DNA from: a virus
Lineage: Duplodnaviria; Heunggongvirae; Uroviricota; Caudoviricetes
Length of the DNA: 64,000 bases
Strand: one strand, 5' to 3'
IMG/VR virus record: IMGVR_UViG_2703718774_000012
The notes under the pieces: generated by a model
Seen by the model: the letters and a program-made list of their open reading frames with translations, nothing else
The model's database searches: none
What the model was told of the DNA's origin: nothing
Translations under genes and position numbers: made by a program
Shown here: piece by piece, positions 1 through 20,847 of the stretch
How positions within the stretch are numbered: position 1 is the first letter of the stretch
Layout: every line of letters begins with the position of its first letter

Positions 1-885
1 TAAACCTGATTTTGCCCGGACATTGCGACCCGGATGACTTATCGTTCCCGCCGCTGACTTTGACATGTATTTAACCTTCAAATCCTCAATGACAATCATT
101 GCGTGGTTTTTGCTGATGATCGTTGTGACTTTATGAAGGTAGTCTCTGCGGATATTTGCGATACGAAAATGCAGTCGCTGTATTTTGCGTTTCTGCTTCT
201 GCCAGTTGTTGCTGAATTTGACCTTGCGGCTTAACTGTCGCTGAAGTCTCGCCAGCTTCTTCTGGTTTTTCTGAAAACTGTTTACAGGCTCAAAGACTGT
301 GCCATCTGACAGCGTGGCGAGTTTAGCCACGCCAGCATCCAGCCCGATCATTGATGCTGAAGGGTGAACCGGAGTGGATATTTCACTTTCTGTCTGAATA
401 CTGATGTACCACTTACCGCAGGACTGGCTGACAGTGACATTTTTCACAACTCCCGTGACCTGACGGCTATTCCGGTAGCGCATCCAGCCCAGTTTCGGCA
501 GAAAAATACGGCTGTTTTCCTGATCGAGCTTAACGCCCTGCGGGTAGCGAAATGCATCATTCTGTCCCCGCTTTTTGAATCGGGGAAAAGCAGCCCGATT
601 CTGGAAGAAGTTTTTGTAAGCCCGCTCAAGGTCTTTCAGTGACTGTTGCAATGGCTGTGAGGGAGAATCTATAAGCCATTCGGTTTCAGTGTCTTTTTTC
701 CACTCAACCAACCAGGAAGCCATTTTCGTGTAAGGGATGTATTTTTTACCGGCCTCATGATTCTCATTCTGAAGCGCCAGAGCACGGTTGAAAACGAAAC
801 GACAAGCTCCGGCAAAGCGCCTCATTTGACACTCCTGTTGACCATCTGGTTTTAACCGGAATTTGAATGACACCTGTTGTTTCAT
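1..885 (-). CDS. tnpB: IS200/IS605-family TnpB (OrfB)-like protein, N-terminal 295 codons; gene continues beyond window start
   Basis: Manual minus-strand translation is open from ATG 885 down to position 1 (MKQQVSFKFRLKPDGQQECQMRRFAGACRFVFNRALAL...IEDLKVKYMSKSAAG), with a stop at 895-897 just upstream. Not in the ORF track because it has no in-window stop. Confidence 0.75.
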   Translation of the reverse strand, partial: MKQQVSFKFRLKPDGQQECQMRRFAGACRFVFNRALALQNENHEAGKKYIPYTKMASWLVEWKKDTETEWLIDSPSQPLQQSLKDLERAYKNFFQNRAAFPRFKKRGQNDAFRYPQGVKLDQENSRIFLPKLGWMRYRNSRQVTGVVKNVTVSQSCGKWYISIQTESEISTPVHPSASMIGLDAGVAKLATLSDGTVFEPVNSFQKNQKKLARLQRQLSRKVKFSNNWQKQKRKIQRLHFRIANIRRDYLHKVTTIISKNHAMIVIEDLKVKYMSKSAAGTISHPGRNVRAKSGL

Positions 886-984
886 GTCACTATTTTAAGC
901 AAAAATAGCCGGGAGGAAAACTGTGCCTTATATCCCCACTATGAGGAGCGTAGGGGGCGGCACATTGGATAAGGCGTAACAGGG

Positions 985-3972
985 ATGAGCTTAAGCGATC
1001 AGGTGGTAATGGCCACCAGCATAGAAACGCTGATCGAGCTGCTAAAGAACCTGCCCGATTATGGGCGGGTTTCGTATGTGGTGACAGCGAAGGGAGACGA
1101 GGTAAAAACAGCGTTTGATATCGTCGATGCCTCAGCTCTTTTGGTATCCAATACTCTGGATGGGAAAATTAATCCAGACTATCCCCAGGAACTTCAGCCG
1201 CGCGACCGGACCCGCGCATCCAGCCTTCTTCAGGTCAACCAGATATCCAAGGATTTGCGTCCTGCCCAGCTTACCGATTCCGGTTTATCCAGCCATGGCG
1301 CGCCAATAATTGGTGAGGACAATGCCGTTGAGTCAGGTAATGGGCGGACCATGGGGATCATTAAAGCCTATCAGGACGGTAATGCGGATCGGTATCGGGA
1401 GTACCTGATTGAACATGCGACCGAATTCGGCATACGGCCTGAAAAGGTTGAATCAATGACGGCTCCGGTACTGGTGCGCCGCCGGTTAACGACGGTTGAC
1501 CGTGTTCAGTTTGCCAAGGACTCAAATATTTCTGATCTCCAGGAAATGGCAGCCAGTGAAAAGGCTTTTGTTGATGCCGACAGCATAACACCGGCGATGA
1601 TGGCGCTTTTTAACCCGTCAGAAAGCGGAGATCTGCTTAGCCGCAGTAATGACGCGTTTATTCGCGGATTTATGACGCAAGTTGGTGCCACACAGGCGGC
1701 TGGCCTTGTAACTGAAGATGGGCGACCAACACGGCAACTTGTTGACCGTATACAAAACGCGATCTTTGCCAAGGCATATAAGGATGCGCGCCTGGTAAGG
1801 ATGGTTGCAGAAGAACCTGATCCGGATATGCGTAATGTTCTGACGGCGCTTAATGCGGCAGCCAATGATTTTGTCCAGATGCAGGCTTTATCAGGAGAAG
1901 CGCACAAGCAGGCTGTGACAACTATTGTTGATGGCATTGAGACAGCGGATAGCCTCGATAAAAAGGCGCTGGCGGCATTGAAAGATGCGGTAGACCTGGT
2001 AAGGCAATCGAAGGAGTCAGGCCAGCATATTACCGATGTTATTGCTCAGGGGGATATGTTCAGCGAAACGGCCCCGGAGGTGAAAGCACTCGCGTTGTTC
2101 ATCGTCGCGAATAACCGTAGCGCGAAGCGTATGGCCACCGCCTTTAAGTTGATGGCGCAACGTATCAATGATGAGTTACAGCACCAGGGCCAGGCGCTCG
2201 GGGATATGTTTGGCGGCGGCGATGTGTCGTTACAGGATATCCTTCGCCAAGTATCTCAGGAACTGGAAAACGAAGGTATGCAAGGGATATCTGGCGGTCT
2301 TTTCGAGTCAGCTTCTGGCGGTAGTTACAACGGTGTTGCTCCATATACCAGCTTGCTATTACATCGGGCATCCGGCATCAAAGACATTATTCATCTGATC
2401 AGGCTGCTTTCCCGTACAGATCCCCAGGATGAACAGCTTGTTCAAGTGCTTGCGCATTTTGTTCGAATGCCTGTTGCCGACGTGAAAAAATGGTGCCGAT
2501 TATTCGGTATCAGCAATTCGTTACTTCGCGGCTTGTTAAATCACGCATCTTCCCTTGGGCGCGATGGCTTTGACGAGATAGCGCAGGCGATAAAAAACGG
2601 AGATATGCCACCAGCTATTGACTGGTTTTCCATTCGCCCAACCAGGGTGAAAGCATTCCTTAGCGCGGCGCATTCGGCATCACCATTGGCAGAAATGGTT
2701 CAGAGGTTGTCGCTCATATTCACAGACCATACCGCGTTGGGTGATCTGACTCTGGACGAGATGAAAGAAGCCTCCATTCAGTGGGCCGATCAACAAAATG
2801 AGGTTAACTCAGACTTCTTGCCAGCATTCAGGAAGGCCGTTAGTAAAGCGGATGATGCCCGTGGAATTCTGAAGGCATTTAAGGCATTGCAAAGTCGTGT
2901 TAATAAACATGTCGGTGATATCTATGGGGTAACGGCGGAAGGCCGGGATATCCTTAAAGAGCACGGCATAACGCCAGAGTTTATTGATGAGATCAGGACT
3001 GATATGCAGCGTGAGGTCGTATCGTCCCTGCAAATCGTAGCCAGAGCGTTGGCGGATGCTAATCCGAAGAGTGCGGCCATTGTTAACCGGGTTATTGGTG
3101 ATATTGAAGCATCGGAGGGCATGGGGGCGCTGAAACTCTTCCTTTCGCGAGCGTTTAATCCTAACGGCAATATTCTCCCTGGCATTATTGGTGAGGCTAA
3201 AAAGTATGTCAGTGAAGAAGAACTTGAGCAGCTTGACCAACTACTTAAGCGATTCTCATATAACCCGCAGACACGCTGGCAAATGAATCAGCGAAGTATG
3301 GGTTCGGTCCACGAGAAAGTGTTATCTGCCATGAACAGTGCGATCGCAAACTCATCCGTATCTGAAGAAAAAGCTCTTGAGTGGGCCGACTCTTTTATCA
3401 CAGAAGAAGTGGAAGAAGCCCGCGCTGGACAGAATGGTGGGATAGACCTGCGCAAGGAACTTGCTGATATTTATCGCCTGACCGGCGGGAAAATATCGAC
3501 CTTATCAAAGGTAGTTCACCACCAGGGAAGGGCATATGCAAATCTAAATGGTGTTGTTGCTGTCAATTTGAACGATGAAAATGCAAGTGCACTGTGGCAC
3601 GAGCTGGGTCATCATCTTGAGTACAGTAACCCTGGTTTGTTAGAGAAAGCCCGGTCATTCCTGAAGGCCAATGTTGAAGGGGATAAGCCATCTTTCGTCA
3701 ATATCGGTGGGCGTGGCAAGCCTGAATGGTGCTTCAGATCTCGATTGAGTAATATTTATATGGCGAAGGTATACCCGCCAGCCTCAGTAAGTAACACCGG
3801 GAAAATTCGGCATAAATCACCGACTATTTCCAAAACGTCAGCAACGGAAGTATTCTCTATGGCTCTTCAGTTGTATCATGACAAAGAGGCCGCTGCCGCA
3901 TCACTGATGAATGGTGACGGATTGCTGGAACTGTTATTAGGTGTGGCAAAGGAGCTAAATAATGCAGATTAA
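985..3972 (+). CDS. large hypothetical protein (995 aa) with HExxH-type motif near C-terminus; possibly a Ddr-like antirestriction-operon protein
   Basis: Long ORF in track; HELGHH at nt 3598-3615; Ddr-like name is inference from position next to the ssb/lyz block only. Confidence 0.6.
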   Translation: MSLSDQVVMATSIETLIELLKNLPDYGRVSYVVTAKGDEVKTAFDIVDASALLVSNTLDGKINPDYPQELQPRDRTRASSLLQVNQISKDLRPAQLTDSGLSSHGAPIIGEDNAVESGNGRTMGIIKAYQDGNADRYREYLIEHATEFGIRPEKVESMTAPVLVRRRLTTVDRVQFAKDSNISDLQEMAASEKAFVDADSITPAMMALFNPSESGDLLSRSNDAFIRGFMTQVGATQAAGLVTEDGRPTRQLVDRIQNAIFAKAYKDARLVRMVAEEPDPDMRNVLTALNAAANDFVQMQALSGEAHKQAVTTIVDGIETADSLDKKALAALKDAVDLVRQSKESGQHITDVIAQGDMFSETAPEVKALALFIVANNRSAKRMATAFKLMAQRINDELQHQGQALGDMFGGGDVSLQDILRQVSQELENEGMQGISGGLFESASGGSYNGVAPYTSLLLHRASGIKDIIHLIRLLSRTDPQDEQLVQVLAHFVRMPVADVKKWCRLFGISNSLLRGLLNHASSLGRDGFDEIAQAIKNGDMPPAIDWFSIRPTRVKAFLSAAHSASPLAEMVQRLSLIFTDHTALGDLTLDEMKEASIQWADQQNEVNSDFLPAFRKAVSKADDARGILKAFKALQSRVNKHVGDIYGVTAEGRDILKEHGITPEFIDEIRTDMQREVVSSLQIVARALADANPKSAAIVNRVIGDIEASEGMGALKLFLSRAFNPNGNILPGIIGEAKKYVSEEELEQLDQLLKRFSYNPQTRWQMNQRSMGSVHEKVLSAMNSAIANSSVSEEKALEWADSFITEEVEEARAGQNGGIDLRKELADIYRLTGGKISTLSKVVHHQGRAYANLNGVVAVNLNDENASALWHELGHHLEYSNPGLLEKARSFLKANVEGDKPSFVNIGGRGKPEWCFRSRLSNIYMAKVYPPASVSNTGKIRHKSPTISKTSATEVFSMALQLYHDKEAAAASLMNGDGLLELLLGVAKELNNAD

Positions 3973-6663: not shown

Positions 6664-7221
6664 ATGAAGGGAAAAACAGCCGCAGGAGGCGGTGCAATTT
6701 GCGCTATCGCGGTGATGATTACCATCGTGATGGGTAATGGCAATGTGCGAACCAACCAGGCGGGGCTTGAGCTGATTGGTAACGCTGAAGGTTGCCGACG
6801 TGATCCATACATGTGCCCGGCGGGGGTATGGACTGACGGGATCGGTAATACACACGGGGTAACGCCGGGTGTGCGAAAAACCGACCAGCAAATCGCCGCT
6901 GATTGGGAAAAGAATATCCTGATCGCTGAACGCTGTATTAATCAGCACTTTCGGGGCAAAGACATGCCCGATAATGCCTTCAGTGCAATGACAAGCGCGG
7001 CATTCAATATGGGATGCAATAGCTTACGGACCTACTACAGCAAAGCGCGAGGCATGCGAGTCGAAACGTCCATCCACAAGTGGGCGCAGAAAGGGGAATG
7101 GGTGAATATGTGTAACCATCTCCCTGATTTTGTGAACAGTAACGGCGTGCCCCTGCGAGGTTTAAAGATTCGCCGTGAAAAAGAACGCCAGCTTTGCCTG
7201 ACGGGGCTGATCAATGAATAA
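6664..7221 (+). CDS. lyz: SAR endolysin (phage lysozyme, 185 aa)
   Basis: MKGKTAAGGGAICAIAVMITIV signal-arrest-release segment, then lysozyme motif ELIGNAEGCRRDPYMCPAGVWTDGIGNTHG; start taken at internal ATG 6664 of track ORF 6565..7221. Confidence 0.92.
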   Translation: MKGKTAAGGGAICAIAVMITIVMGNGNVRTNQAGLELIGNAEGCRRDPYMCPAGVWTDGIGNTHGVTPGVRKTDQQIAADWEKNILIAERCINQHFRGKDMPDNAFSAMTSAAFNMGCNSLRTYYSKARGMRVETSIHKWAQKGEWVNMCNHLPDFVNSNGVPLRGLKIRREKERQLCLTGLINE

Positions 7222-7481: not shown

Positions 7482-7508
7482 CCCCGGCAGCCGCCGGGGT
7501 TATTTTTG
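7482..7508 (+). terminator. rho-independent terminator
   Basis: CCCCGGC-AGCC-GCCGGGG hairpin followed by TTATTTTTG. Confidence 0.8.
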
Positions 7509-7512
7509 ATGG

Positions 7513-10243
<2,731 letters not shown>

Positions 10244-10309
10244 TTAATTAGAATAATTTGCATCGTGTTTGAACGGAATTTAACACTAGTCACTTGTTAA
10301 GGATTACCA

Positions 10310-13300
10310 ATGAACAAGCTATCTATGGGGGTGTTTCGCTGTTCAAGTGTCAGCGAAATATTGAAATACATTAGGGCAATAACATCTCACCGAGCGCCGA
10401 TTAAATACGGCGTGGAAAAGGTGGAAGGCAAAAGCTATGACCGACTGCGCCGGGAGGCGAATCAGAAGGCGATAGATTTGCTTAATTCACTGGTGGACGG
10501 CGCGACACTGACAGATGAACAGCGCCAGATCCTGGCTGGGTACACCGGTGAAGGCGGCATTGGCGGGTCCGTCTCCGAATATTACACACCAAAGCCGATC
10601 GCTGAAGGTGTCTGGGAGATCATGAAGCTCTACGGCGCGGACGTAGGTAACACTCTGGAACCATCGGCGGGCACCGGCGTTTTTAATGAGACAAAACCGG
10701 TTGGTACGGTGATGACTGCGACTGAGATCAGCAGTGTTTCCGGTCGTATAAACCAGTTGTTACACCCGGAAGACAGCGTACAGATTTCCCCGTTCTAACA
10801 GCTGGCTATAAGCACACCTAACGATTCATTCGACCATGTTGTGGGTAACGTTCCGTTCGGCGGTCGTGATAACACACGCAACATCGATAAGCCTTACGCA
10901 GAAGAAACGGACATGGGTTCTTACTTCATGCTCCGCATGCTGGACAAGATAAAGCCAGGCGGATTCATGTGCGTGATTGTGCCGCCGTCCATTGTTTCAG
11001 GTTCAAACATGAAGCGGTTACGCCTGCGCCTATCACGGAAAGCAGAATTTCTTGGTGCCCACCGCTTGCCTACCGGTACTTTTGACGCAAACGGGACCAG
11101 TACGGTCGTAGATGTGGTGCTGATGCGCAAACATCCGGCAGAGATGGCTGAGAAAATCCCCCTGGTGGATGAAAGCACTCTTGAATCAGCAAATGTGCTT
11201 TGGCCAACGTTTATTTCTGGCAAGTGGTTTGAAAAGGATGGCCGCCGGTTTGTTCATGGCACCCAAGAAAAGGGCTTCCGGGGGCGTATTGAGGTTCGTG
11301 CCGACGGTCAGATTGATAACCAGGCTCTTAAAGCGAAGCTGATTCATCGTTTCGAAAGCCGTATCGACTGGTCTTTGCTCGATATGGCTGAACCGTCACC
11401 GACCGCAGACGTTGTTGGTGAAGGGGAAATGCGCCTGATTAATGGTGTATGGCAAAAATATGCTGGTGGTCGCTGGATTGAAGCTGATGCCGGGAAGGAA
11501 CTTAAGATCGATGCTGCCAGTTATGGCGCGGATAGCTGGGAGGCTCTTCAGCGTAACCTGACTACAACAGAAGGCCGTCTCGGCATGACATTTACCCAGA
11601 TGGCAAATGTCCGCGATAAGTACACCACATCAATCAGCGACGATATGGTGCAGCTGGTGGACTGGATTAACAGCCAGCCTGAAAAATACCGTGAACGCTT
11701 GTATCGCGGGGCGATGATTGGCCGGATGTTAATTGAATATCAGGACATGAAGGCCGCCGGGCATAGTGCTGAACAAATCGAACAGCAGCGCCTTTCTCTG
11801 GTATCCCGTTTGCAGGCAGAGATTGACCGTTTTGGTAACCCCGGTCGCGGTCCGATAGCGAAATTATCGGGGAGCGGTGCGCGCGCCTGGTTTGCTTTCC
11901 GTGGTGCAATTAAGCTGGATGGCACTATTTCTGACGAGCTGACAGGAAAACTGGTTACGCATGATTCCAGCGCCAGTTATGACTCCACCAGCTATCAGGA
12001 CACCCTGCGTTATCTCTACAGTGATCTCACTCGCGATCCAATCCAGCTCGATGATTTCCGCCTTGCGTTTACCGGCGAACTGCCAGCCAGTGATGATGAG
12101 TTGCTTAATTTATTGGCCAGCACCCCTGGCATTGCGGTTTCACCGTATGGCGGGATTGTTCCGTTCGCCCGCGCCACCAGCGGCGACATTAACGAGATAG
12201 TGGCTCCAAAACAGGAATTCCTCGCCACGCTCCCCGACGGTCCAGTAAAGAACAACGTCCTTAATCAGCTGGCAGCGATCGAAGAGAAGCGCATCAAGAC
12301 GCCAGCAGAGAATATCCGCTTTAAGCTCAATAGCCGTTGGTTCGACCGCTCCGTCATTCTGGAGTTTTTGCAGGAAAACGGCTATCCGGATCTGCGCTAT
12401 GTGCAGTCAGTGCAGCTGGAAGGCGACGAAATGGTTTCTGACACCTATCACGGTGGTGATGGTCTGTTCGTCGGGCACCGATACGGTGTCGTCCAGCGCA
12501 AGGATAAAGAAACAGGCGAGATCCGCTACGAGTGGGACCGTAAATCAGGTGAAAACGCGACCGGGTTCCCGGCACAGCTGGAAAAGTATCTCAATGGTGC
12601 GCGTATCGGTGGCAAAGATAGCGCGACGGCGAACGGCTACCGCGAGCAGATGGCACTGCTTGAGGACCAGTTCAATAAGTGGATCAAGACGCACGATCGC
12701 TACGATGAGCTGGTTGCCAAATACAACGATGTGTTCAATAGCAATATCCCGTATGAACACTCTGGCGATCCGCTTGGGTTGAAGGGATTAAGCGGTAAGC
12801 GCCAGCCATTTGATTACCAGAATAGCGAGGTGCGCCGACTGTCCGAAGATGGGCGCGGCATCCTGGGCTTCGGCACCGGGCTGGGTAAAACCACGACCGC
12901 GCTGGCGCTTGAGGCGTTCAACTATGAGAACGGTCGCTCCACCCGTACTGCTTATGTAGTGCCTAAATCAGTGCTGGAAAACTGGTATTACGAAGCAAAA
13001 GAGTTCCTGAGTGAAGAGGCATTCAGTAACTACCTGTTCGTCGGTCTTGATGTGCTGATGGATGGCGATCAGATTCGCCAGGTGCCGGTGCTCGATGAGA
13101 ACGGTAAACCTGTTCTTGGTACTGATGGCACTCCAGTTATGCGCGATGCTCTTAAGCTGGCAGATGAAGCCACTATCACGGCGCGGATGAACGCGATCCC
13201 GCACTCAAATTACCGTGCAGTCGTGTTTACCAAAGAACAATACGCCCGCATTCCGCTACGTGATGACACCGTAGATGAGCATGCACAAGACATGCTTTAT

Positions 13301-16300
13301 GACTTCGTTGCCGCCGGGCGCGTAGCCAGCGCAATGGATTCCGACTCCCATCGTAAAGAGGCGGCGCGTCGCTGGGTATTGTCGGAGTATTCAGATACCG
13401 GTACCGAAAAAGCAGAGAAGTATCCGTACTTTGAGGATATGGGCTTCGATAGTGTGATCGCCGACGAAGGTCACAACTACCGCAATAGCTATAAAAATGG
13501 TCGCGAAGCGTCACAACTGGCCTATCTGCCCACCAGCGCGGTGGCGCAATCGGCGCGGGATATGGCAATCAAAAACGCGTACCTGATGAAAAAGAATGGC
13601 GGGCGCGGGCCGGTTCTCCTGACTGCAACGCCAGTCGTTAACACCCCGATCGATGCATACAACATGCTTTCTCATGTTCTGCCGAAGGAATACTGGCAGA
13701 AGATGGGGATCTACGGTCCTGATGACTTCGTTAAATTCTTCGGCAAGACCAGGCTGGAAACGGTACAGAAAATCAGCGGTGAAGTTGAAGAAAAAATGGC
13801 GCTGGTGGGCTTTGAAAACCTTGATGCGCTGCGCGGTATATTCCATCGCTGGGTAACGCTTAAAACGGCGGAAGACGTTAAGGATACCGTGGAGATCCCG
13901 GAGCTGGACGAACACCAGCAGGATGCACCACTTACTGAAGAACAACTGGCGGCGTATGAAGAATTGCGTCAGCAGGCGGAAGCGGCGGCCAAAGCCAACA
14001 ATGGCGTAACGACCTCGGTCAATGAAGACGGCGTGATTGAGCACGAGAAAGCCCGTCCGATCTTCTCAATAATCAGGGATATGGACCGCGTATGTACTGA
14101 CATGGACCTGTACTATCGCCGGATCACCTATCGTTTCCTGCCGGAGTACGCAGATGCGGTGCAGCAGCTGGCGGACAGTTTGCCTAAACAAGCCACCAGC
14201 GAAGACGACGACAGTGATGATTCAATCACGCAGCAATCGCAATACTCCCTGATAGATAAGGGCGAGTTTATTCAGTTGCAGGTTCCGGAAGCGTTCGAGC
14301 AGGAAGTGAATAAGCGCCTGGCCAGGTTTGGCATTGACGAACAGACCGTAACTCACCCCGTTACGCCCAAATACGCGAAGCTGATTGCCACGCTGAAGGA
14401 GTTTTTCCCGGAAGGTAAGCAAATCATCTTCACCGATGAAAAAACGCAGCACCAGAAGCTCAAGCGCATTATCTGCAATGCTCTTAACCTTGAACCTTCA
14501 AAGGTGGGGATACTGAATGCTCAGACGGTTGCCGAGGCAGGTAAAACCGGTAAGAAACTGAAAGCGGTTAAACCGCCGAAAGAGCTACCGGATGAACCAA
14601 CAGATGCACAGATAGCGAAATACAACGAGCAAATGGCTCTGTATGACGCCTATATCGCGCAGCAAAATGAAATGTCGCTGGGCGGGCTGGAAAAGATTGC
14701 TGCCGACTTCCAGGAGGGCCGGACTCCGATCATCATCTGCAACAAAAAGGCAGAGGTGGGTATCAACCTGCATCGAGGAACGACTGACATCCATCATCTG
14801 ACGTTGCCATGGACACCAGCCAGTATCGCACAGCGTAACGGTCGCGGTGCCCGAGTTGGTTCCAACCGTGCAAGCGTTCGCGTTCACTACTACTGCGGCA
14901 AGGGTTCTTTCGATGAATACCGACTGAAGACGCTGAAGCGTAAAGCAGGCTGGATCTCCGATATCCTCCGTTCAGATAAGTCAGAAATGGAGAACGCCGA
15001 CGCCAACGATATGATCGAAATGCAGATGTATACCGCTAAGGATGATGGCGAACGTCTGGCAATGATGCAGGTTCAAATGGATAAGGCGAAAGCCGCGCAA
15101 CGCGCTCGCCAGAAAGAACAGGCTACTATCGACCTTCAGAACTACATCAAGGCGCAGCACGCAGCTGGTGAGGATGTGGAGGTGCTTACCGCTGAATTAG
15201 AGCGAAGAAAAGCGGAACTCGAAAAGACCACCGCCGACGTCGCCAAATTCAAACAGGCGGTAATGGCCAAAGCAGCTGATAACGCAGACTGGAAAGCCCG
15301 CTGGGGTAGCGTCCATCACACAGACCGTACGTTGTTAGCACAGTATCGCGCGTCGTTGAAAAGCGCCATTCAGCGCAAGGCTAATATCTCTCAAGCCATC
15401 TCCCGCTATGAGAAATTATTGAACCGTACTCAGAAGGCCGCGACGGATATCAAACGCCTTCGCCCGCTGGTGGAGGATGCAATAAATAAAGGCATTCTGG
15501 ATGTTGATCCTGACCTGGTTAACCATGCGAGTGAGTTCCTTATTATCGGCGATCGCTCATGGCGTGTAGGCCAATACTACGATTGTGCCGGTGATATCGT
15601 TCGCATTAAGTCGCTGGACTTCGACAGCCAGCGCGCAGACGTGGAGATTATCTTTACCTTCAAAGGTACCAAATCGGGTAACTGGGATGTGAAGACGCTG
15701 GATAAACAGGTTGATGTAACTCCCGATGAAGATGCTGTTATGCAGAAAATCAGTGGTGGCGTCTCCATCGCCGGGATTAACGACATCATTTCCTGTGACG
15801 ATTTCTACCGTTTCCAGCAGCGCGGCATGATCAAAATCACTGACTCATACGGCGTTCAGACTACAGAGTCAGGCTATAGCATTGATTTTGTTGGTACCTA
15901 TACGGACCCACTGAAGCATGCGGTTTACCCGGATCGCCGTGACGGCGCGCTGAAGTCGTCAATTGCAAAATGGGTGCTTGGTATGATGTCTGAAGGGAAT
16001 AACCGCCAGGTCCGTTTGGCAGAAGTATTCCTGACTGAACTGTTTGGCTCCAATTATGGCGATGTAATCGCGTCATATGGAGATACGCTATCCCCTGAAG
16101 CAATTCAGGAGAAAATAGCGGATGCGATCGCCAGAATGCCGGAGAAAACAAGCCAGGGGGCTACTCGTAACGGGGATTCTGAACTTGAGGTCACCAATGC
16201 CATTTTCGGTACCCATGAGTTCCGGGCGTCAGATTATGAGATCACCACAGCACAGTTTGGCACCATTGGCATTTACAGCAATAAAGCCGAGATCAAGCAG

Positions 16301-17077
16301 GCAATGGACGCAGCAAGCGCGCGTATCGCAGCAGAACGGGAAGCCAATCTGAATCATGCAGTCGCCGCACTGACTCAATCGTGGGTAACAGCAATCAGGG
16401 AGGCCGCCACCACAGGGAAAATCACACCTGCAATTGCGGATGTCGTAAACGACGGCTCTAAATTTATGGATGCCTATCAAATGGATGCGGTGAAGTTGCC
16501 ATCAGCCTATGGTCAACTCAGCTATCGCATGACCTACAACCTGGTATCAATGTTTTCCGACCTTGCCATCCTTGGGCTGGTGGATCTTAACGAGGTTACG
16601 CCGGAATTGCTCAGCATGCGCAAGAATCATGTGGAGATATTGCAGAGAATTAACACGGTTCTTGCCGGGCGCACCGATGAAGAGAAACAGGCCGACGCTG
16701 ATCGGATAAACCTGGCCCTTGGCAACATCACGGAGGAAGAAATTGCCGCCAGAAACGAGAAACAAGAAGAGTTATCATCAATACAGGGTGATGCCACCAG
16801 CATAGCTCAGTCTCTTGGTCTGAATTATCGCGTATCCACCGCCGACCTGAAGATGATGTACGCACCAAAATTCGCCGCTGGCGAGGTATTTGGGCTTCAG
16901 GAAGCCTCAGGCATGAAAGGCGTTCTTTTCCGTGCGAAAGACGCAATCAAGGCGAAATTCGGCGCTCGCTGGCTGCCAGCGAAGGCGAAGAACAGCGATT
17001 TCCCGGGTAACTGGTGGATTATCGAGACAAAACACAACGTGGCGGACGTTCTGGCCGTCATCCAACAATACGCATAA
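10310..17077 (+). pseudogene. darB: darB-like antirestriction gene (2255-codon frame: N6-adenine methyltransferase + SF2 helicase) interrupted by in-frame TAA at 10796-10798
   Basis: Track ORFs 10310..10798 and 10841..17077 share one frame and are separated only by the TAA. SAM motif EPSAGTGVF lies before the stop and NVPFGG (NPPF-like) after it; helicase motifs GFGTGLGKTTTA and VIADEGHNYRN follow. Confidence 0.85.
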
Positions 17078-17110
17078 CAGGAGCGCCCGGTTCGCCGGGC
17101 GTCGCATAAT

Positions 17111-17551
17111 ATGGCCACACTATCTGATACAATAAAACCGAATAAAACATATCTTGAGGCGGTACTGCGTACGGCGTTGTTAGGAAAGACAGAAGACGAA
17201 TACGTTGATTTCTTCCTGTCAGGGCTACGTGGGCGATTACTGAAAAATCCCCGCCTGTACCGCAGCTATGGCCCATACTGGCCGGAAATTAAAAAATTAT
17301 TACTGGAGCGCGGTTATGGTAATTTCGGTCGTCTCGTAGACCGTGACGTTCGCAAAATTTACCGTTATGACCGCCCGGCGCTAACACTCATAGCCGCGAC
17401 GCTCTACAGCCAGGAGCGTTTTGATAATGGTCAGATATACTCAGCCTGGCATTTACTGCCAGTGCCTGAAGAAGTTGACGACCAGGACTATGAGTTTGAG
17501 TCTTACGATTTGGAAGTTGAAGCCTTGGCACAGGCTGGAGAGAAAACTTGA
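17111..17551 (+). CDS. ulx: Ulx-like protein (146 aa)
   Basis: ORF directly downstream of darB and overlapping the next gene; synteny with P1 darB-ulx-lxc. Confidence 0.55.
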   Translation: MATLSDTIKPNKTYLEAVLRTALLGKTEDEYVDFFLSGLRGRLLKNPRLYRSYGPYWPEIKKLLLERGYGNFGRLVDRDVRKIYRYDRPALTLIAATLYSQERFDNGQIYSAWHLLPVPEEVDDQDYEFESYDLEVEALAQAGEKT

Positions 17552-17796
17552 AAAAGCGATACTACACAGTAAAGCATGGGACGCTACGAGCATTACAAGA
17601 GTTTGCTGACAAGCATAACGTTGAGGTGCGCAGGGAAGGGGGAAGTAAAGCTCTGCGCATGTACCGTCCGGACGGGAAATGGCGGACGGTCGTCGATTTC
17701 AAAACTAACAGCGTTCCCCAGGGCGTCCGCGACCGGGCATTCGAAGAATGGGAACAGATCATCATAGATAACGCATTGCTCCTGAATGCGGATTGA
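17548..17796 (+). CDS. lxc: Lxc/Bof-like modulator (82 aa)
   Basis: 82-aa ORF coupled to ulx; size and position as P1 lxc. Confidence 0.55.
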   Translation: MKKRYYTVKHGTLRALQEFADKHNVEVRREGGSKALRMYRPDGKWRTVVDFKTNSVPQGVRDRAFEEWEQIIIDNALLLNAD

Positions 17797-17805
17797 TTTA
17801 TATAT

Positions 17806-17835
17806 CGGGCAGTTGTAGCTGCCCGTTAAATTTTT
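17806..17835 (+). terminator. rho-independent terminator
   Basis: CGGGCAGTTGTAGCTGCCCG hairpin followed by TTAAATTTTT. Confidence 0.8.
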
Positions 17836-17847
17836 GCCGCTCTTCAA

Positions 17848-19155
17848 TTACACTATATCTTTTACTATAGAATTAGCATCCTCCAGTACGCCAATTTCTT
17901 CGATGCGTTTTTTTATTATTAATCGATTTGAAGCAATGATTGTGGACCATCTTGTTTCCCAAGCTCTATAAGCATGCCACGAATAACCTAATCTCATTTC
18001 TTTGCTCATGTTGGACATTGAGTATTCAACGGCGTCTAAATATTCATTTTCATACTTAGTTCCACCAATTTCTAAAAGGCTGCCGAAATATATAAGCCAT
18101 TTTGCAAGCTGCTCGTATTGCTCCCAAGCACCACTCTCTCTTGTTAAATCTCTTTTTTGTTTTATTATTCTCTTGAAAAAATCAACTACTTGTCCGTCAT
18201 TCCAGTCGAAACCCTCAGATATAATCGAGGAGGTTATTTGATAGAATGAATCTTCTAATCTAAGGTATTCATCCTTATAGTTGAAAGTGCCTGATAAAAC
18301 TCTTTTTATACTTTGTCTGGCTCTTGCTATGACGCCTTCAATTAACATTATGTTAATGCTCAATCTCTTAAAGAAAGAGTCTATTTCGGTGTTGTCAATT
18401 ACTCGTATTCCAAAACAATAAAAATAATAATCCTTCATATCTTGACTTACTTCACTGCGAGAGATGAAAAATATATTAGAGCACAGAGCGTTACCTTTCG
18501 AGAATATTTTGTAATCATTTATAATTGCTTTTAGGTTCGTGTCGCTTAAAGAATAGCCTAATATCGCAACTGTATTTTCATGCAGCATCGTGCTAAGTTT
18601 TCGAGAGAAATAAGTGTCGGAGTTTATAAACCTAAAATAGTCTTCTGATGTAACAATCATGTTTTGTGGAGAGTCAATAGAACCATGGACATGATATATT
18701 TTAACTTTGGAGGGATATTTAGGAATAGGTAAGCCTGGGGTAATAGACTGAACCTCCTCATCTCCAGTTAAGTATTCAGCTAACTTGTCATAATTCGTTG
18801 TAATGACACGAAATGTTCTTTTTTGAAAAAAATCCTTTATATTTGATATATCTTCGCCAAGTTGTATTGGAGATATGATGTCAACAATTTCATCATAAAT
18901 CGACTTGCCTTCAATGTTGAGCTTCAAAGATAGTATCTGTGCGGCTTCTTCAAGACTCAGTGCTGGTGGTTTATCATCAGGGAATAACGTGTCTTCCAAC
19001 TGTTTGGCGTTGTGAACTTTGCTGCAAACTTTTTTTAATAGTTCTTTCCACGTTGGTGCTTCGCCGTTCGAGACTGCCTTTGAAAAGCCAGTCCCGGTAA
19101 ATAGACAAAGCCTGCTTGTAGCGGCAGCGTATGCTAACTCAACATATTCGCTCAT
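17848..19155 (-). CDS. SIR2-like (SIR2_2-type) protein, 435 aa; candidate defence effector
   Basis: Motifs LFTGTGFS (GAGxS-like), TTNYD, HVHGS and ILGYSLSD in the N-terminal half; markedly lower GC than flanks; RBS GGAG. Confidence 0.8.
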   Translation of the reverse strand: MSEYVELAYAAATSRLCLFTGTGFSKAVSNGEAPTWKELLKKVCSKVHNAKQLEDTLFPDDKPPALSLEEAAQILSLKLNIEGKSIYDEIVDIISPIQLGEDISNIKDFFQKRTFRVITTNYDKLAEYLTGDEEVQSITPGLPIPKYPSKVKIYHVHGSIDSPQNMIVTSEDYFRFINSDTYFSRKLSTMLHENTVAILGYSLSDTNLKAIINDYKIFSKGNALCSNIFFISRSEVSQDMKDYYFYCFGIRVIDNTEIDSFFKRLSINIMLIEGVIARARQSIKRVLSGTFNYKDEYLRLEDSFYQITSSIISEGFDWNDGQVVDFFKRIIKQKRDLTRESGAWEQYEQLAKWLIYFGSLLEIGGTKYENEYLDAVEYSMSNMSKEMRLGYSWHAYRAWETRWSTIIASNRLIIKKRIEEIGVLEDANSIVKDIV

Positions 19156-19211
19156 TACTTACTCCATTTACTTATAGTTCTATGGAGAAGTATACCCTAA
19201 TGCATTGACGT

Positions 19212-19853
19212 TTATAGATAATTTCCTTTTCCTGTTAATTCCCCTTTCGGCACCCGTTTTTGTGCCAGCGTTTGGGTTCCGCGAATTATGTTAATCAGAG
19301 GGCTTAGTAACGATGGCTCCTGGCGGGCCTCAACTTCTCCAGCCATTGCCCTGATGTAGTCGGCGCTGGCAACGTTGTTGTATTCCGTCGCAAAGCAACA
19401 TAGTAACGTCAGAACATGTTCTGTCGTTATTTCGCTCCAGTTGATGTTGAAAAATTCATCGCCTTTTTTATCGTGTTCGGAATCGAAGATGCTTTGGTGA
19501 AGGATGTATTTGCCGGATTCCTTGCGCGGTAACTTGATCGCTTTCTGGCGTTCCAATTCCTTGTAAATCTGCATTGCTTCAATCAGTACCGGTCTGCCGT
19601 TCATGAAGGGATCACGCAACCTTACACGCTGGCCAACTCGACCGGTAATAAAGCTGTTTTCCTCTTCCACCAGCACGATAAAACCCTTTTCCTCTTTTTC
19701 TCGCAATTCGCGCAGCAGCTGGAGTTCCATATCGCGGCGGCGTTCAGGGTAGCTGGTCCGCTCAGCCATGATCAGCTCATTGTTGATCCATGCAGCAGTC
19801 ATTGACGCCGGTTTGCCGACGCTCATTGAAACAACGCATATTTTCTTATCCAT
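19212..19853 (-). CDS. mat: Mat-like particle maturation protein (213 aa)
   Basis: Track ORF 19212..19880; start at ATG 19853 with RBS AGGGG; position between ref and the res/mod slot. Confidence 0.5.
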   Translation of the reverse strand: MDKKICVVSMSVGKPASMTAAWINNELIMAERTSYPERRRDMELQLLRELREKEEKGFIVLVEEENSFITGRVGQRVRLRDPFMNGRPVLIEAMQIYKELERQKAIKLPRKESGKYILHQSIFDSEHDKKGDEFFNINWSEITTEHVLTLLCCFATEYNNVASADYIRAMAGEVEARQEPSLLSPLINIIRGTQTLAQKRVPKGELTGKGNYL

Positions 19854-20041
19854 AGCGCCCCTACAAAAAAGAAAAGCCACCAGCGGCGGCTTAGCAATAC
19901 AACTGAAGGTAGCGCCCGGTACTCAGACTGTGCCGTCCATGGAATATTTGAAAAGGGATCCATCCGTACCGGGCGTGTGATGATTCTGACTGAAGTCACT
20001 TGTCAGTTGTCAATCATTTATCATTAAAAATAATATATTTA

Positions 20042-20602
20042 TTAGTGCATGATGTTTGCCATCTCATAGGCATCAGCCAGTAACTCCATCTCTGACTTGT
20101 TCAGCAAGATGAATTCTTTCTTGCCTCCAACCACACCATCGGCATGAACAGGGACCAGCCATGGGTATTTTTCTCTTACTTCAGCCGGAGCTGCATGCTG
20201 GTGGTGCCATCTACAAAGTGGCAATTGCTTTTTATGACAACCCGGCGCGGTACGACCGGCGATATGGTGCAGAGACACCTCATTAGATATTACTCCATGC
20301 ATATAGCAGGCAATGCAGGGGAGAGCGCCAAGAGCATTGGCGATGCGCCGTTCCTCCGCCGTTGGTGTTCTCCCCTTCAAGCCACGAGATTTTATTTTTA
20401 CCGCGCTTTTCCGCGTTTTGCTGGCTGGTGGGCGCTCTTTCTGTTTAGCGATACGGCGGTCGATAGAATCCCGCATTTTCTGATATTGCGATTCTCTCCA
20501 GGCGGGGTCAGCCAACTTTTCCCGTTGCCGAGCGATCGCTCGTTCTCTGGCTGCCTTCTGCCACTCGCGGCGCTGTTCAAGTTTTTGTTCGATTGTTTTC
20601 AT
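20042..20602 (-). CDS. ref: Ref recombination enhancement function, HNH endonuclease (186 aa)
   Basis: MKTIEQKLEQRREWQKAARERA... with Cys/His cluster CIACYMHG...CRWHHQH; start at internal ATG 20602 of track ORF 20042..20707. Confidence 0.9.
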   Translation of the reverse strand: MKTIEQKLEQRREWQKAARERAIARQREKLADPAWRESQYQKMRDSIDRRIAKQKERPPASKTRKSAVKIKSRGLKGRTPTAEERRIANALGALPCIACYMHGVISNEVSLHHIAGRTAPGCHKKQLPLCRWHHQHAAPAEVREKYPWLVPVHADGVVGGKKEFILLNKSEMELLADAYEMANIMH

Positions 20603-20607
20603 ATGGC

Positions 20608-20634
20608 AAAAAAAAGGCGGCCTAATGGCCGCCA
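20608..20634 (-). terminator. rho-independent terminator on minus strand abutting the ref start
   Basis: GGCGGCC-ATTA-GGCCGCC hairpin followed by nine T ending 5 nt before the ref ATG. Confidence 0.7.
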
Positions 20635-20700
20635 ATGATGTCAAGGAGTTAAGTAATGGCAACGTCTTCGTAGTTGACAAAAACTGCGGCTCAATTATAG

Positions 20701-20717
20701 CAATCAATTAGAGCAAT
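20701..20717 (-). promoter_or_regulatory. C1 operator-like site upstream of ref
   Basis: CAATCAATTAGAGCAAT, 14/17 to consensus (reverse orientation). Confidence 0.5.
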
Positions 20718-20847
20718 GGTAGATATTTTGTTAATCGAGAATCACATTTTTTCACTTCAGTACCTGTGTGCTATACTCTTTCTTGATTGATTGGATGCGG
20801 AATACAAACCCGCTCTTTTGTGCAGCCTGGCTCCTTGCCAGGCTTTT

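Follow-up and report, generated by a model that had tools for sequence, protein, structure and literature searches.

The anti-restriction protein DarB of phage P1 is a virion cargo of about 40-45 copies per particle (PMC9024508, PMC12810830, PMC11109961), and it is described there as required against EcoB and EcoK. Its mechanism is undefined in the literature (PMC11109961); the same paper describes a DNA-mediated restriction alleviation, which a clpX-deleted or site-free set-up would avoid. Residues 1-30 of DarB form a capsid-targeting signal that is needed for packaging, Ulx is a helper for DarB packaging, and the ddrB product is another Dar component that aids it (all PMC9024508). The best solved relatives of the N-terminal domain of DarB are structures of EcoKI HsdM (PDB 2y7c and 2ar0), a γ-class N6-adenine DNA methyltransferase. 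The relationship is distant (E about 6e-6), but the motif X/I region (YFTPRP...DPAAGTAGF) and motif IV (NPPFG) of HsdM match DarB residues 88-125 and 176-267. In DarB, by contrast, this domain is joined to an SF2 helicase and a long C-terminal region, and the protein travels in the virion, whereas HsdM is a subunit of a restriction-modification enzyme.

The window analysed here is a 64,000-nucleotide stretch of the IMG/VR virus record IMGVR_UViG_2703718774_000012, which is a P1-like phage-plasmid (Punavirus type) that comes nearest to plasmids of O26/O111-type E. coli. An initial annotation had described two ORFs, 10310..10798 and 10841..17077, as sharing one frame and together spanning 2255 codons, the size given for P1 DarB, with a single in-frame TAA at codon 163. 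The ORFs (162 aa from an ATG and 2078 aa from a GTG) are both on the plus strand, and translation of positions 10310-17077 bore the description out: the frame contains 2255 sense positions and a terminal stop, and its sole interruption is the TAA at 10796-10798. The size was also correct, as darB in P1 (NC_005856, P1_gp011, YP_006479.1) is annotated at 6768 nt and 2255 codons, equal in length to the frame in the window. The two proteins are colinear and 99.1% identical, with 20 amino acid differences counting the stop. With 2092 codons free of stops after the TAA and such high identity to P1 DarB, the frame lies far outside what chance would produce. The lesion is one G>T substitution, at 10796, which converts GAA (Glu163) to the ochre codon and also abolishes an 8-bp palindrome, GTTCGAAC (10792-10799). 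The gene is thus divided into a 5' fragment (10310..10798, plus strand), consisting of 162 codons and the premature TAA and encoding a 17.6 kDa peptide, and an undamaged remainder (10799..17077, plus strand) of 2092 codons and the natural stop. The uninterrupted ORF expected of a 250 kDa DarB is broken by the TAA at codon 163, and judged by its sequence the locus is a darB pseudogene, a nonsense allele (E163*), rather than a functional member of the DarB family.

The stop falls within the methyltransferase. Pfam places N6_Mtase at residues 145-291, so a stop at codon 163 splits this domain; across the whole frame Pfam also matches Eco57I, SNF2-rel_dom, ResIII and Helicase_C, the last at residues 1455-1517. 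As the initial annotation had stated, the stop lies between EPSAGTGVF, starting at residue 117, and NVPFGG, starting at residue 180. EcoKI HsdM aligns on either side of the stop, with motifs X and I at DarB 88-125 and the part from motif IV on at 176-267, which confirms the identity of motifs I and IV. The 162-codon fragment holds the capsid-targeting signal, whose 30 residues, MNKLSMGVFRCSSVSEILKYIRAITSHRAP (10310-10399), are the same as in P1 DarB, together with motifs X and I (EPSAGTGVF, residues 117-125); searched by itself against Pfam, it matched no family. The downstream part holds motif IV (NVPFGG, residues 180-185) and the SNF2/ResIII helicase motifs GFGTGLGKT at 853 and DEGH at 1052, with QRNGRG at 1508.

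Around this gene, the locus resembles that of P1. The order is prt (8525-10234, minus strand), divergent and upstream of darB, followed by darB, ulx and lxc (17548-17796), as in P1. The ulx gene (17111..17551, plus strand) is intact, as is a ddrB-like gene (985..3972, plus strand) of 995 aa with a ddrB-ParB domain and no internal stop; PF18763 was matched on an identical ddrB-like gene in a related locus (L053). The predicted sigma-70 promoter PdarB (10224..10254, plus strand), with a -35 element TTGTCT at 10224-10229 and a -10 element TAGAAT at 10249-10254, was placed by position, by adding the offset of 3199 to coordinates 7025-7055 of the P1 annotation (L001), and a promoter consensus scan gave a weak overlapping match at 10228-10257. 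The leader is the same as in P1 except at 10259/10260. The native ATG at 10310 is preceded by the Shine-Dalgarno sequence AAGGA (10299..10303, plus strand), with an anti-SD duplex energy of -5.9 kcal/mol. A codon-by-codon check of 21 flanking genes found no internal stops, and in comparison with pO26_EH031_1, the closest complete plasmid, no long ORF but darB is split.

Comparison of codon 163 with P1 and its relatives, a check proposed in the initial annotation, returned the sense codon GAA in P1, Ro157c2YLVW and pO111_2 and in 50 of 51 other related loci, the remaining one having TAA; at the single base 10796, other loci have G in 51 cases and T in one. A change this rare, one substitution in a background almost the same as that of intact alleles, might reflect a sequencing or assembly error in a plasmid that truly carries GAA, as the initial annotation had allowed. 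The TAA allele is also seen in no complete plasmid or genome of the annotated collections: a 61-mer carrying it had no perfect match in 313 matching complete-genome records of E. coli, in 325 matching PLSDB plasmids or in annotated phages, and none was found in GTDB representatives. The same T is, however, present in three further public assemblies from different runs (IMG/VR UViG_2698536628_000021, Logan SRR17830169 and Logan ERR7474461), two of which have private differences of their own. The exact 162-aa product also has NCBI entries (EEV2754599.1, EFG1521277.1, EFL5831789.1 and EIO7381489.1), and one source name gives the serotype O139. The change is moreover a substitution and not an indel, and no homopolymer indels occur in 24.6 kb around darB. 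Since long ORFs apart from darB are unbroken when set against pO26_EH031_1, we reject poor overall quality of the window as an explanation.

Linked variants, compared between the four TAA carriers and nine intact relatives with coverage that differs by site, also speak against error. A synonymous darB SNP at 11446 (plus strand; Gly379, GGC>GGT) marks the clade: T is found in all four carriers and C in all eight intact relatives covering the site. In ulx, a synonymous SNP at 17338 (Val76) is A in the window and in the one other carrier contig that reaches the gene, and A is absent from every intact relative covering the site (T in p00_3230-1 and its sisters). A separate SNP, C>T at 10259 (plus strand), which lies 5 nt past the -10 hexamer of PdarB, is specific to the window among the carriers; the three other carriers and the nine intact relatives have C, and across 49 loci covering the site C occurs 48 times and T once. 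Since T10796 recurs in three more assemblies, completely linked with up to two derived SNPs, we consider the mutation real and give error next to no credence. A single strain or outbreak clone, sequenced repeatedly, may account for all four carriers; random error would still be excluded in that case, and little would be learned on spread.

The intact sister plasmids p00_3230-1 (NZ_CP074968.1, WP_096854036.1), pSJ2D-1, p96_1414B-1 and 2013C-4081 unnamed2 have a near-identical backbone. The closest, p00_3230-1, differs from the SRR17830169 haplotype in 13.3 kb at 10796, 11446 and 17338 only, and three differences from the ancestral TAA haplotype are all that is seen between window positions 7500 and 20798. 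In p00_3230-1 and its sisters, which have G10796, C11446 and T17338, darB is annotated as one 2255-aa N-6 DNA methylase. Downstream of the TAA, no further darB defect was found in any carrier, and no stop, indel or substitution separates the four carriers within the stretch that each covers. The nonsense allele is real, is inherited in a small clone and is the sole disabling change in darB. Of the readings offered initially, a recent nonsense mutation is the one that agrees with these data, namely a single G>T in a near-invariant GAA on a background almost the same as that of intact alleles.

One feature of the surrounding data might hint at a technical problem: five unrelated contigs terminate exactly at base 10796. 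The idea that they mark a mobile-element or deletion junction was rejected by scans. When the base after GTACAGATTTCCCCGTTCG was required to differ from A, there was no match in viral contigs, and metagenome and genome contigs gave nothing but unrelated chance matches. In PLSDB, 455 of 458 plasmids are continuous through the site, and the Tn3 transposase of pO26_10153_1 sits in ddrB, not darB. Restriction-digest library ends were likewise rejected as the origin of the contig ends, given many internal TCGA sites and no CGA at contig starts. The mutated site is overlapped by TTCGAA and TCGA, which on fill-in would leave ends at TTCG.

A different reading of the same sequence is that the stop divides darB into working parts, with translation restarting at GTG 10841 or nearby to give a mostly helicase protein of ~232 kDa that retains a role. 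The GTG (10841..10843, plus strand) lies only 43 nt past the stop, the 2092 downstream codons are intact, and the SNF2, ResIII and Helicase_C scores of the 2078-aa ORF are normal, but an intact downstream part is equally expected of a young pseudogene. The codon opens a mechanically called ORF and is not a credible start; it corresponds to Val178 inside the single CDS of homologues. Anti-SD duplex energies were computed for all in-frame starts from 10799 to 11700. GTG 10841 lacks a Shine-Dalgarno sequence, its upstream 17 nt giving +0.3 kcal/mol, worse than the random-position mean of -1.8 and far from the -5.9 of the native start. The only restart candidates in the interval are weak ones, ATG 10967 and GTG 10973, which are preceded by SD-like sequences (-5.8 kcal/mol). 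A restart product would lack motif I, and the methyltransferase score of the 2078-aa ORF, 19.8, is under the Pfam cut-off of 20.4. It would also lack the N-terminal 30-residue signal on which packaging of DarB depends (PMC9024508), and DarB is thought to act once co-injected with DNA. No homologue has a gene boundary at this point: darB is a single 6768-nt CDS in P1, Ro157c2YLVW, pO111_2 and five further plasmids, so the split is not a natural one. The functional split raised in the initial annotation is, on this evidence, very unlikely. Some reinitiation at a low level beyond the stop, as at ATG 10967, or basal readthrough may nevertheless occur.

Full-length DarB would still be made if the TAA were decoded by an ochre suppressor or through programmed readthrough. 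tRNA genes are part of P1-like elements, and the window has four, among them a tRNA-Tyr that is one anticodon change from a supC-type suppressor. ARAGORN and Rfam, run on the whole window, nevertheless returned four ordinary tRNAs with anticodons CAT, TGT, GTA and GTT, none of which reads UAA, and Rfam showed these tRNAs only and no recoding element. A programmed signal is ruled out because the stop, confined to one clone, is not conserved in relatives. UAA is, besides, the stop codon terminated most efficiently in E. coli. We regard decoding of the TAA as extremely improbable.

The reading that we prefer is that darB of this P1-like phage-plasmid very probably became E163* by one inherited G>T, its only disabling change, with loss of DarB as the predicted result. 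A single transversion made Glu163 (GAA) an ochre TAA, and translation would stop after 162 residues. The resulting 17.6 kDa peptide would keep the signal for capsid targeting as well as the half of the HsdM-like methyltransferase that binds SAM, and would lack catalytic motif IV and the entire SNF2-type helicase. Virions of the lineage would then be without their 250 kDa DarB cargo, and virion DNA would lose the DarB-dependent cis protection against type I restriction of the EcoK/EcoB type. The rest of the phage-plasmid would be unaffected, with the helper genes ulx and ddrB left without a client. As the downstream 6.3 kb of darB is untouched, the pseudogene is young; E163* is an ordinary young loss-of-function allele of a small clone and not a new gene arrangement.

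One can also ask whether such a loss is an adaptation and not neutral decay, with the retained N-terminal peptide perhaps packaged and having a residual or dominant role. The gain could lie in easing the burden of loading about 40 copies of a protein of 250 kDa, or in escape from a host defence that senses DarB. Four slightly diverged haplotypes keep the allele, and independent disruption of darB is frequent; both observations are compatible with adaptive loss. No finding here places it ahead of relaxed selection, the prophage living mainly as a plasmid, and we hold adaptive loss to be quite improbable.

The import of the allele beyond annotation is small. The proper label for the locus is darB pseudogene (E163*) and not two genes; it would be wrong to count the ORFs of 162 aa ("SAM-dependent methyltransferase") and 2078 aa ("helicase") as separate proteins. 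A natural darB-null phage-plasmid and the near-isogenic intact p00_3230-1 make a possible clean pair for the role of DarB in wild STEC-type backgrounds.

Other P1-like plasmids have often lost the same non-essential giant gene. Where the allele in the window is a clean single-base ochre mutation with the rest of the gene untouched, the others are insertions, deletions and frameshifts elsewhere in darB. Together with E163*, the IS, transposon and deletion alleles illustrate that P1-like elements can do without this very large anti-restriction gene and often lose it during plasmid life. They include an IS3 insertion in pSCLS1, an IS1 insertion with truncation in p3347558_2, a TnAs3/integron insertion in E2 p1 and a 510-nt in-frame deletion in pO26_10153_1, with frameshifts in other P1-like plasmids. 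A different truncated DarB product, of 129 aa, is present on 44 contigs.

The two open reading frames at the darB locus, one starting with ATG (10310..10798, + strand, 162 aa) and the other with GTG (10841..17077, + strand, 2078 aa), belong to one frame. Translation of 10310-17077 gives 2255 codons plus a terminal stop, and the sole internal stop is codon 163, a TAA at 10796-10798. It falls between EPSAGTGVF, which starts at residue 117 of DarB, and NVPFGG, which starts at residue 180; every coordinate in the initial annotation was right. The DNA is 97-99.8% identical to darB of phage P1 and hundreds of P1-like plasmids. In P1 (NC_005856, YP_006479.1), darB is annotated as a single 6768-nt CDS with the divergent prt/pro genes on one side and ulx-lxc on the other, and the arrangement in the window is identical. 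The window frame shares 99.1% protein identity with P1 DarB, including identical residues 1-30. The locus agrees with P1 DarB in all sequence-based tests of membership except the uninterrupted frame, which is the functionally decisive one: a well-known gene is present here in mutated form.

In an intact DarB allele, Pfam places N6_Mtase at residues 145-291, Eco57I at 166-244, SNF2-rel_dom/ResIII at 833-911 and Helicase_C at 1455-1517. The best solved relatives, EcoKI HsdM chains, align to two stretches of DarB: residues 88-125, with motifs X and I, and residues 176-267, from motif IV onward. Together, these placements put the stop inside the methyltransferase fold, past the SAM-binding half and ahead of the catalytic NPPF-type motif.

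Codon 163 is GAA (Glu) in P1, phage Ro157c2YLVW and pO111_2; a G>T at 10796 sets the window apart from them (E163*). We tallied the codon over 49 contigs from a degenerate-codon scan of IMG/VR together with fetched references. The comparison returned the sense codon GAA in 50 loci and TAA in one; column 10796 held G 51 times and T once. A 61-nt probe centred on the TAA had no perfect match among 313 matching complete E. coli genome records or 325 matching PLSDB plasmids. A split-gene architecture was rejected because none of the homologues compared has a natural gene boundary at codon 163, and a recoding site, including programmed readthrough, because relatives lack the stop. The substitution also abolishes a perfect 8-bp palindrome, GTTCGAAC (10792-10799), which includes TaqI (TCGA) and BstBI-type (TTCGAA) sites; we found no functional meaning for it.

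A sequencing error had been one proposed origin of the stop. The exact TAA context is also present in IMG/VR record UViG_2698536628_000021, and a search for the exact 162-aa product turned up two Logan contigs with the TAA, one of 24 kb from SRR17830169 and one of 11.7 kb from ERR7474461. The downstream ORF is 2078 aa in the former and runs past the contig end in the latter. One source name of the identical 162-aa protein is non-partial, "Escherichia coli O139". We then tabulated SNPs over window positions 7500-20798, comparing the window with the three contigs and with nine intact relatives. T11446 (synonymous, darB Gly379) is common to all four TAA carriers, and A17338 (synonymous, ulx Val76) to the two that cover the site, the window and SRR17830169; every intact relative covering these sites has C at 11446 and T at 17338. 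Among the carriers, the private changes of the window are 10259 C>T plus 20109 G>A, that of the other IMG/VR record is 10306 A>G, and those of ERR7474461 are 10194 G>T plus the loss of 1 nt at 9529; SRR17830169 has none. Across 13.3 kb, just three positions (10796, 11446 and 17338) separate the SRR17830169 haplotype from the closest intact sister plasmid, p00_3230-1 (NZ_CP074968.1). Because the TAA is inherited with linked SNPs in four assemblies, three of them besides the window, the stop is a clade marker rather than a random miscall, and we rejected sequencing error. Nor is the window error-prone: the 21 flanking genes checked contain no internal stops, and over the part of pO26_EH031_1 that the window shares, darB is the sole long ORF that is split relative to that plasmid.

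Two of the private changes touch neighbouring features. Position 10259, which follows the predicted PdarB -10 hexamer at a distance of 5 nt, is C in the three other carriers and the nine intact relatives, and in 48 of 49 loci. The ERR7474461 deletion falls within a T run and breaks the portal gene prt into ORFs of 285 and 284 aa; it reflects either faulty assembly or an additional prophage defect of that isolate.

Five further contigs, 98-99% identical to the window and with the wild-type G, all terminate precisely at the counterpart of base 10796. They come from independent samples and different assemblers: GCA_012817115.1 (NCBI), SRR32301355, SRR9879813 and ERR1623582 (Logan), and ERZ13617106 (ENA). 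The exact-product look-up by design selects contigs ending within codon 163, yet all five stop at one nucleotide. Sequence searches found no foreign junction there, and a restriction-library origin was tried and failed. Chance combined with selection bias may account for the shared end, or a within-sample fork at 10796 may. The case for an inherited mutation is unchanged, since the TAA occurs in a single haplotype only and is linked to other SNPs.

The native darB start has a Shine-Dalgarno (SD) sequence, AAGGA, with an anti-SD energy of -5.9 kcal/mol; translation from it would end after 162 residues with a 17.6 kDa product. A helicase-only product from GTG 10841, the first start-like codon past the stop, had been suggested. 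This start fares badly, at +0.3 kcal/mol against a random-position mean of -1.8, and homologues have no boundary there. Among the in-frame starts from 10799 to 11700, the only SD-like contexts precede ATG 10967 and GTG 10973 (-5.8 kcal/mol), and a product restarted at either would lack motif I and the N-terminus, with a methyltransferase score under the Pfam cut-off. The window encodes no ochre suppressor tRNA. Its four tRNA genes (51820-54087, - strand) have anticodons CAT, TGT, GTA and GTT; P1 itself has three, and tRNA-Tyr(GTA) at 53921-54007 seems to be extra.

Deletions of DarB point to a packaging signal in its N-terminus, whose first 30 residues are enough to bring a reporter into the capsid; of the six Dar proteins, DarB is loaded last, at ~40 copies per virion, aided by Ulx and DdrB (Gonzales et al. 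2022, PMC9024508). It is required against EcoB/EcoK type I restriction (PMC12810830; PMC11109961) and is thought to act on co-injected DNA (PMC5512222). Given this literature, the stop and the lack of a credible restart, the window darB is best read as a null allele. Virions would lack the 250 kDa DarB cargo and DarB-dependent protection would be lost; the truncated N-terminal product may still enter the capsid. Within the window, to which the Dar-gene check was limited (darA, hdf and ddrA are located upstream of it), ulx (17111-17551) and ddrB (985-3972) are intact and would lose their DarB client.

A recent nonsense mutation, as also proposed initially, is supported by a single G>T with no further stop, indel or substitution past the TAA in the darB stretch that each of the four carriers covers. 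Given this lack of further damage the pseudogene is young, though its age has sufficed for a few private SNPs to build up in the clone. The correct annotation is darB pseudogene E163*, and the clone and p00_3230-1 form a near-isogenic natural pair for testing DarB function.

Such loss is not unusual. In a spread sample of 60 hits from PLSDB, a database that omits pseudogenes, seven had no annotated CDS under darB and an eighth matched just 25% of the probe. A closer look at five of the seven showed that darB carries an IS3 insertion and truncation in pSCLS1, an IS1 insertion and truncation followed by capsule-biosynthesis genes in p3347558_2, TnAs3 with a class 1 integron in E. coli E2 p1, and frameshifts in the remaining two, some at homopolymers and possibly long-read errors. 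In pO26_10153_1, darB has a 510-nt in-frame deletion, and the cluster of N-terminal DarB fragments holds a second truncated product, of 129 aa, on 44 contigs up to 92 kb. darB is a large non-essential target, lost repeatedly in P1-like plasmids, where cargo seems often to insert into it.

Neighbouring genes also vary. Positions 1-894 (- strand) hold the 3' part of an IS200/IS605-type gene of the InsQ/TnpB family. pO26_EH031_1 has an identical copy, which there separates the ddrA-like gene of the dar operon from the ddrB-like one, so the element may affect ddrB expression. Whereas P1 has type III res/mod genes directly after lxc, the window has, at 17848-19853 (- strand), a 435-aa SIR2-family gene (PADLOC PDC-S25, with ThsA and LmuA-like matches) and a neighbouring 213-aa ORF that gave no match, and this position looks like a variable defence-gene slot. 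In the ssb-ddrB interval, pSJ2D-1, p96_1414B-1 and p7_33_80A-2 carry an anti-phage dGTPase gene upstream of ssb, and two of these three sister plasmids, all with the same darB haplotype, also a TnpB element; the window has other small ORFs there. While darB is conserved, the accessory genes around it form a mosaic.
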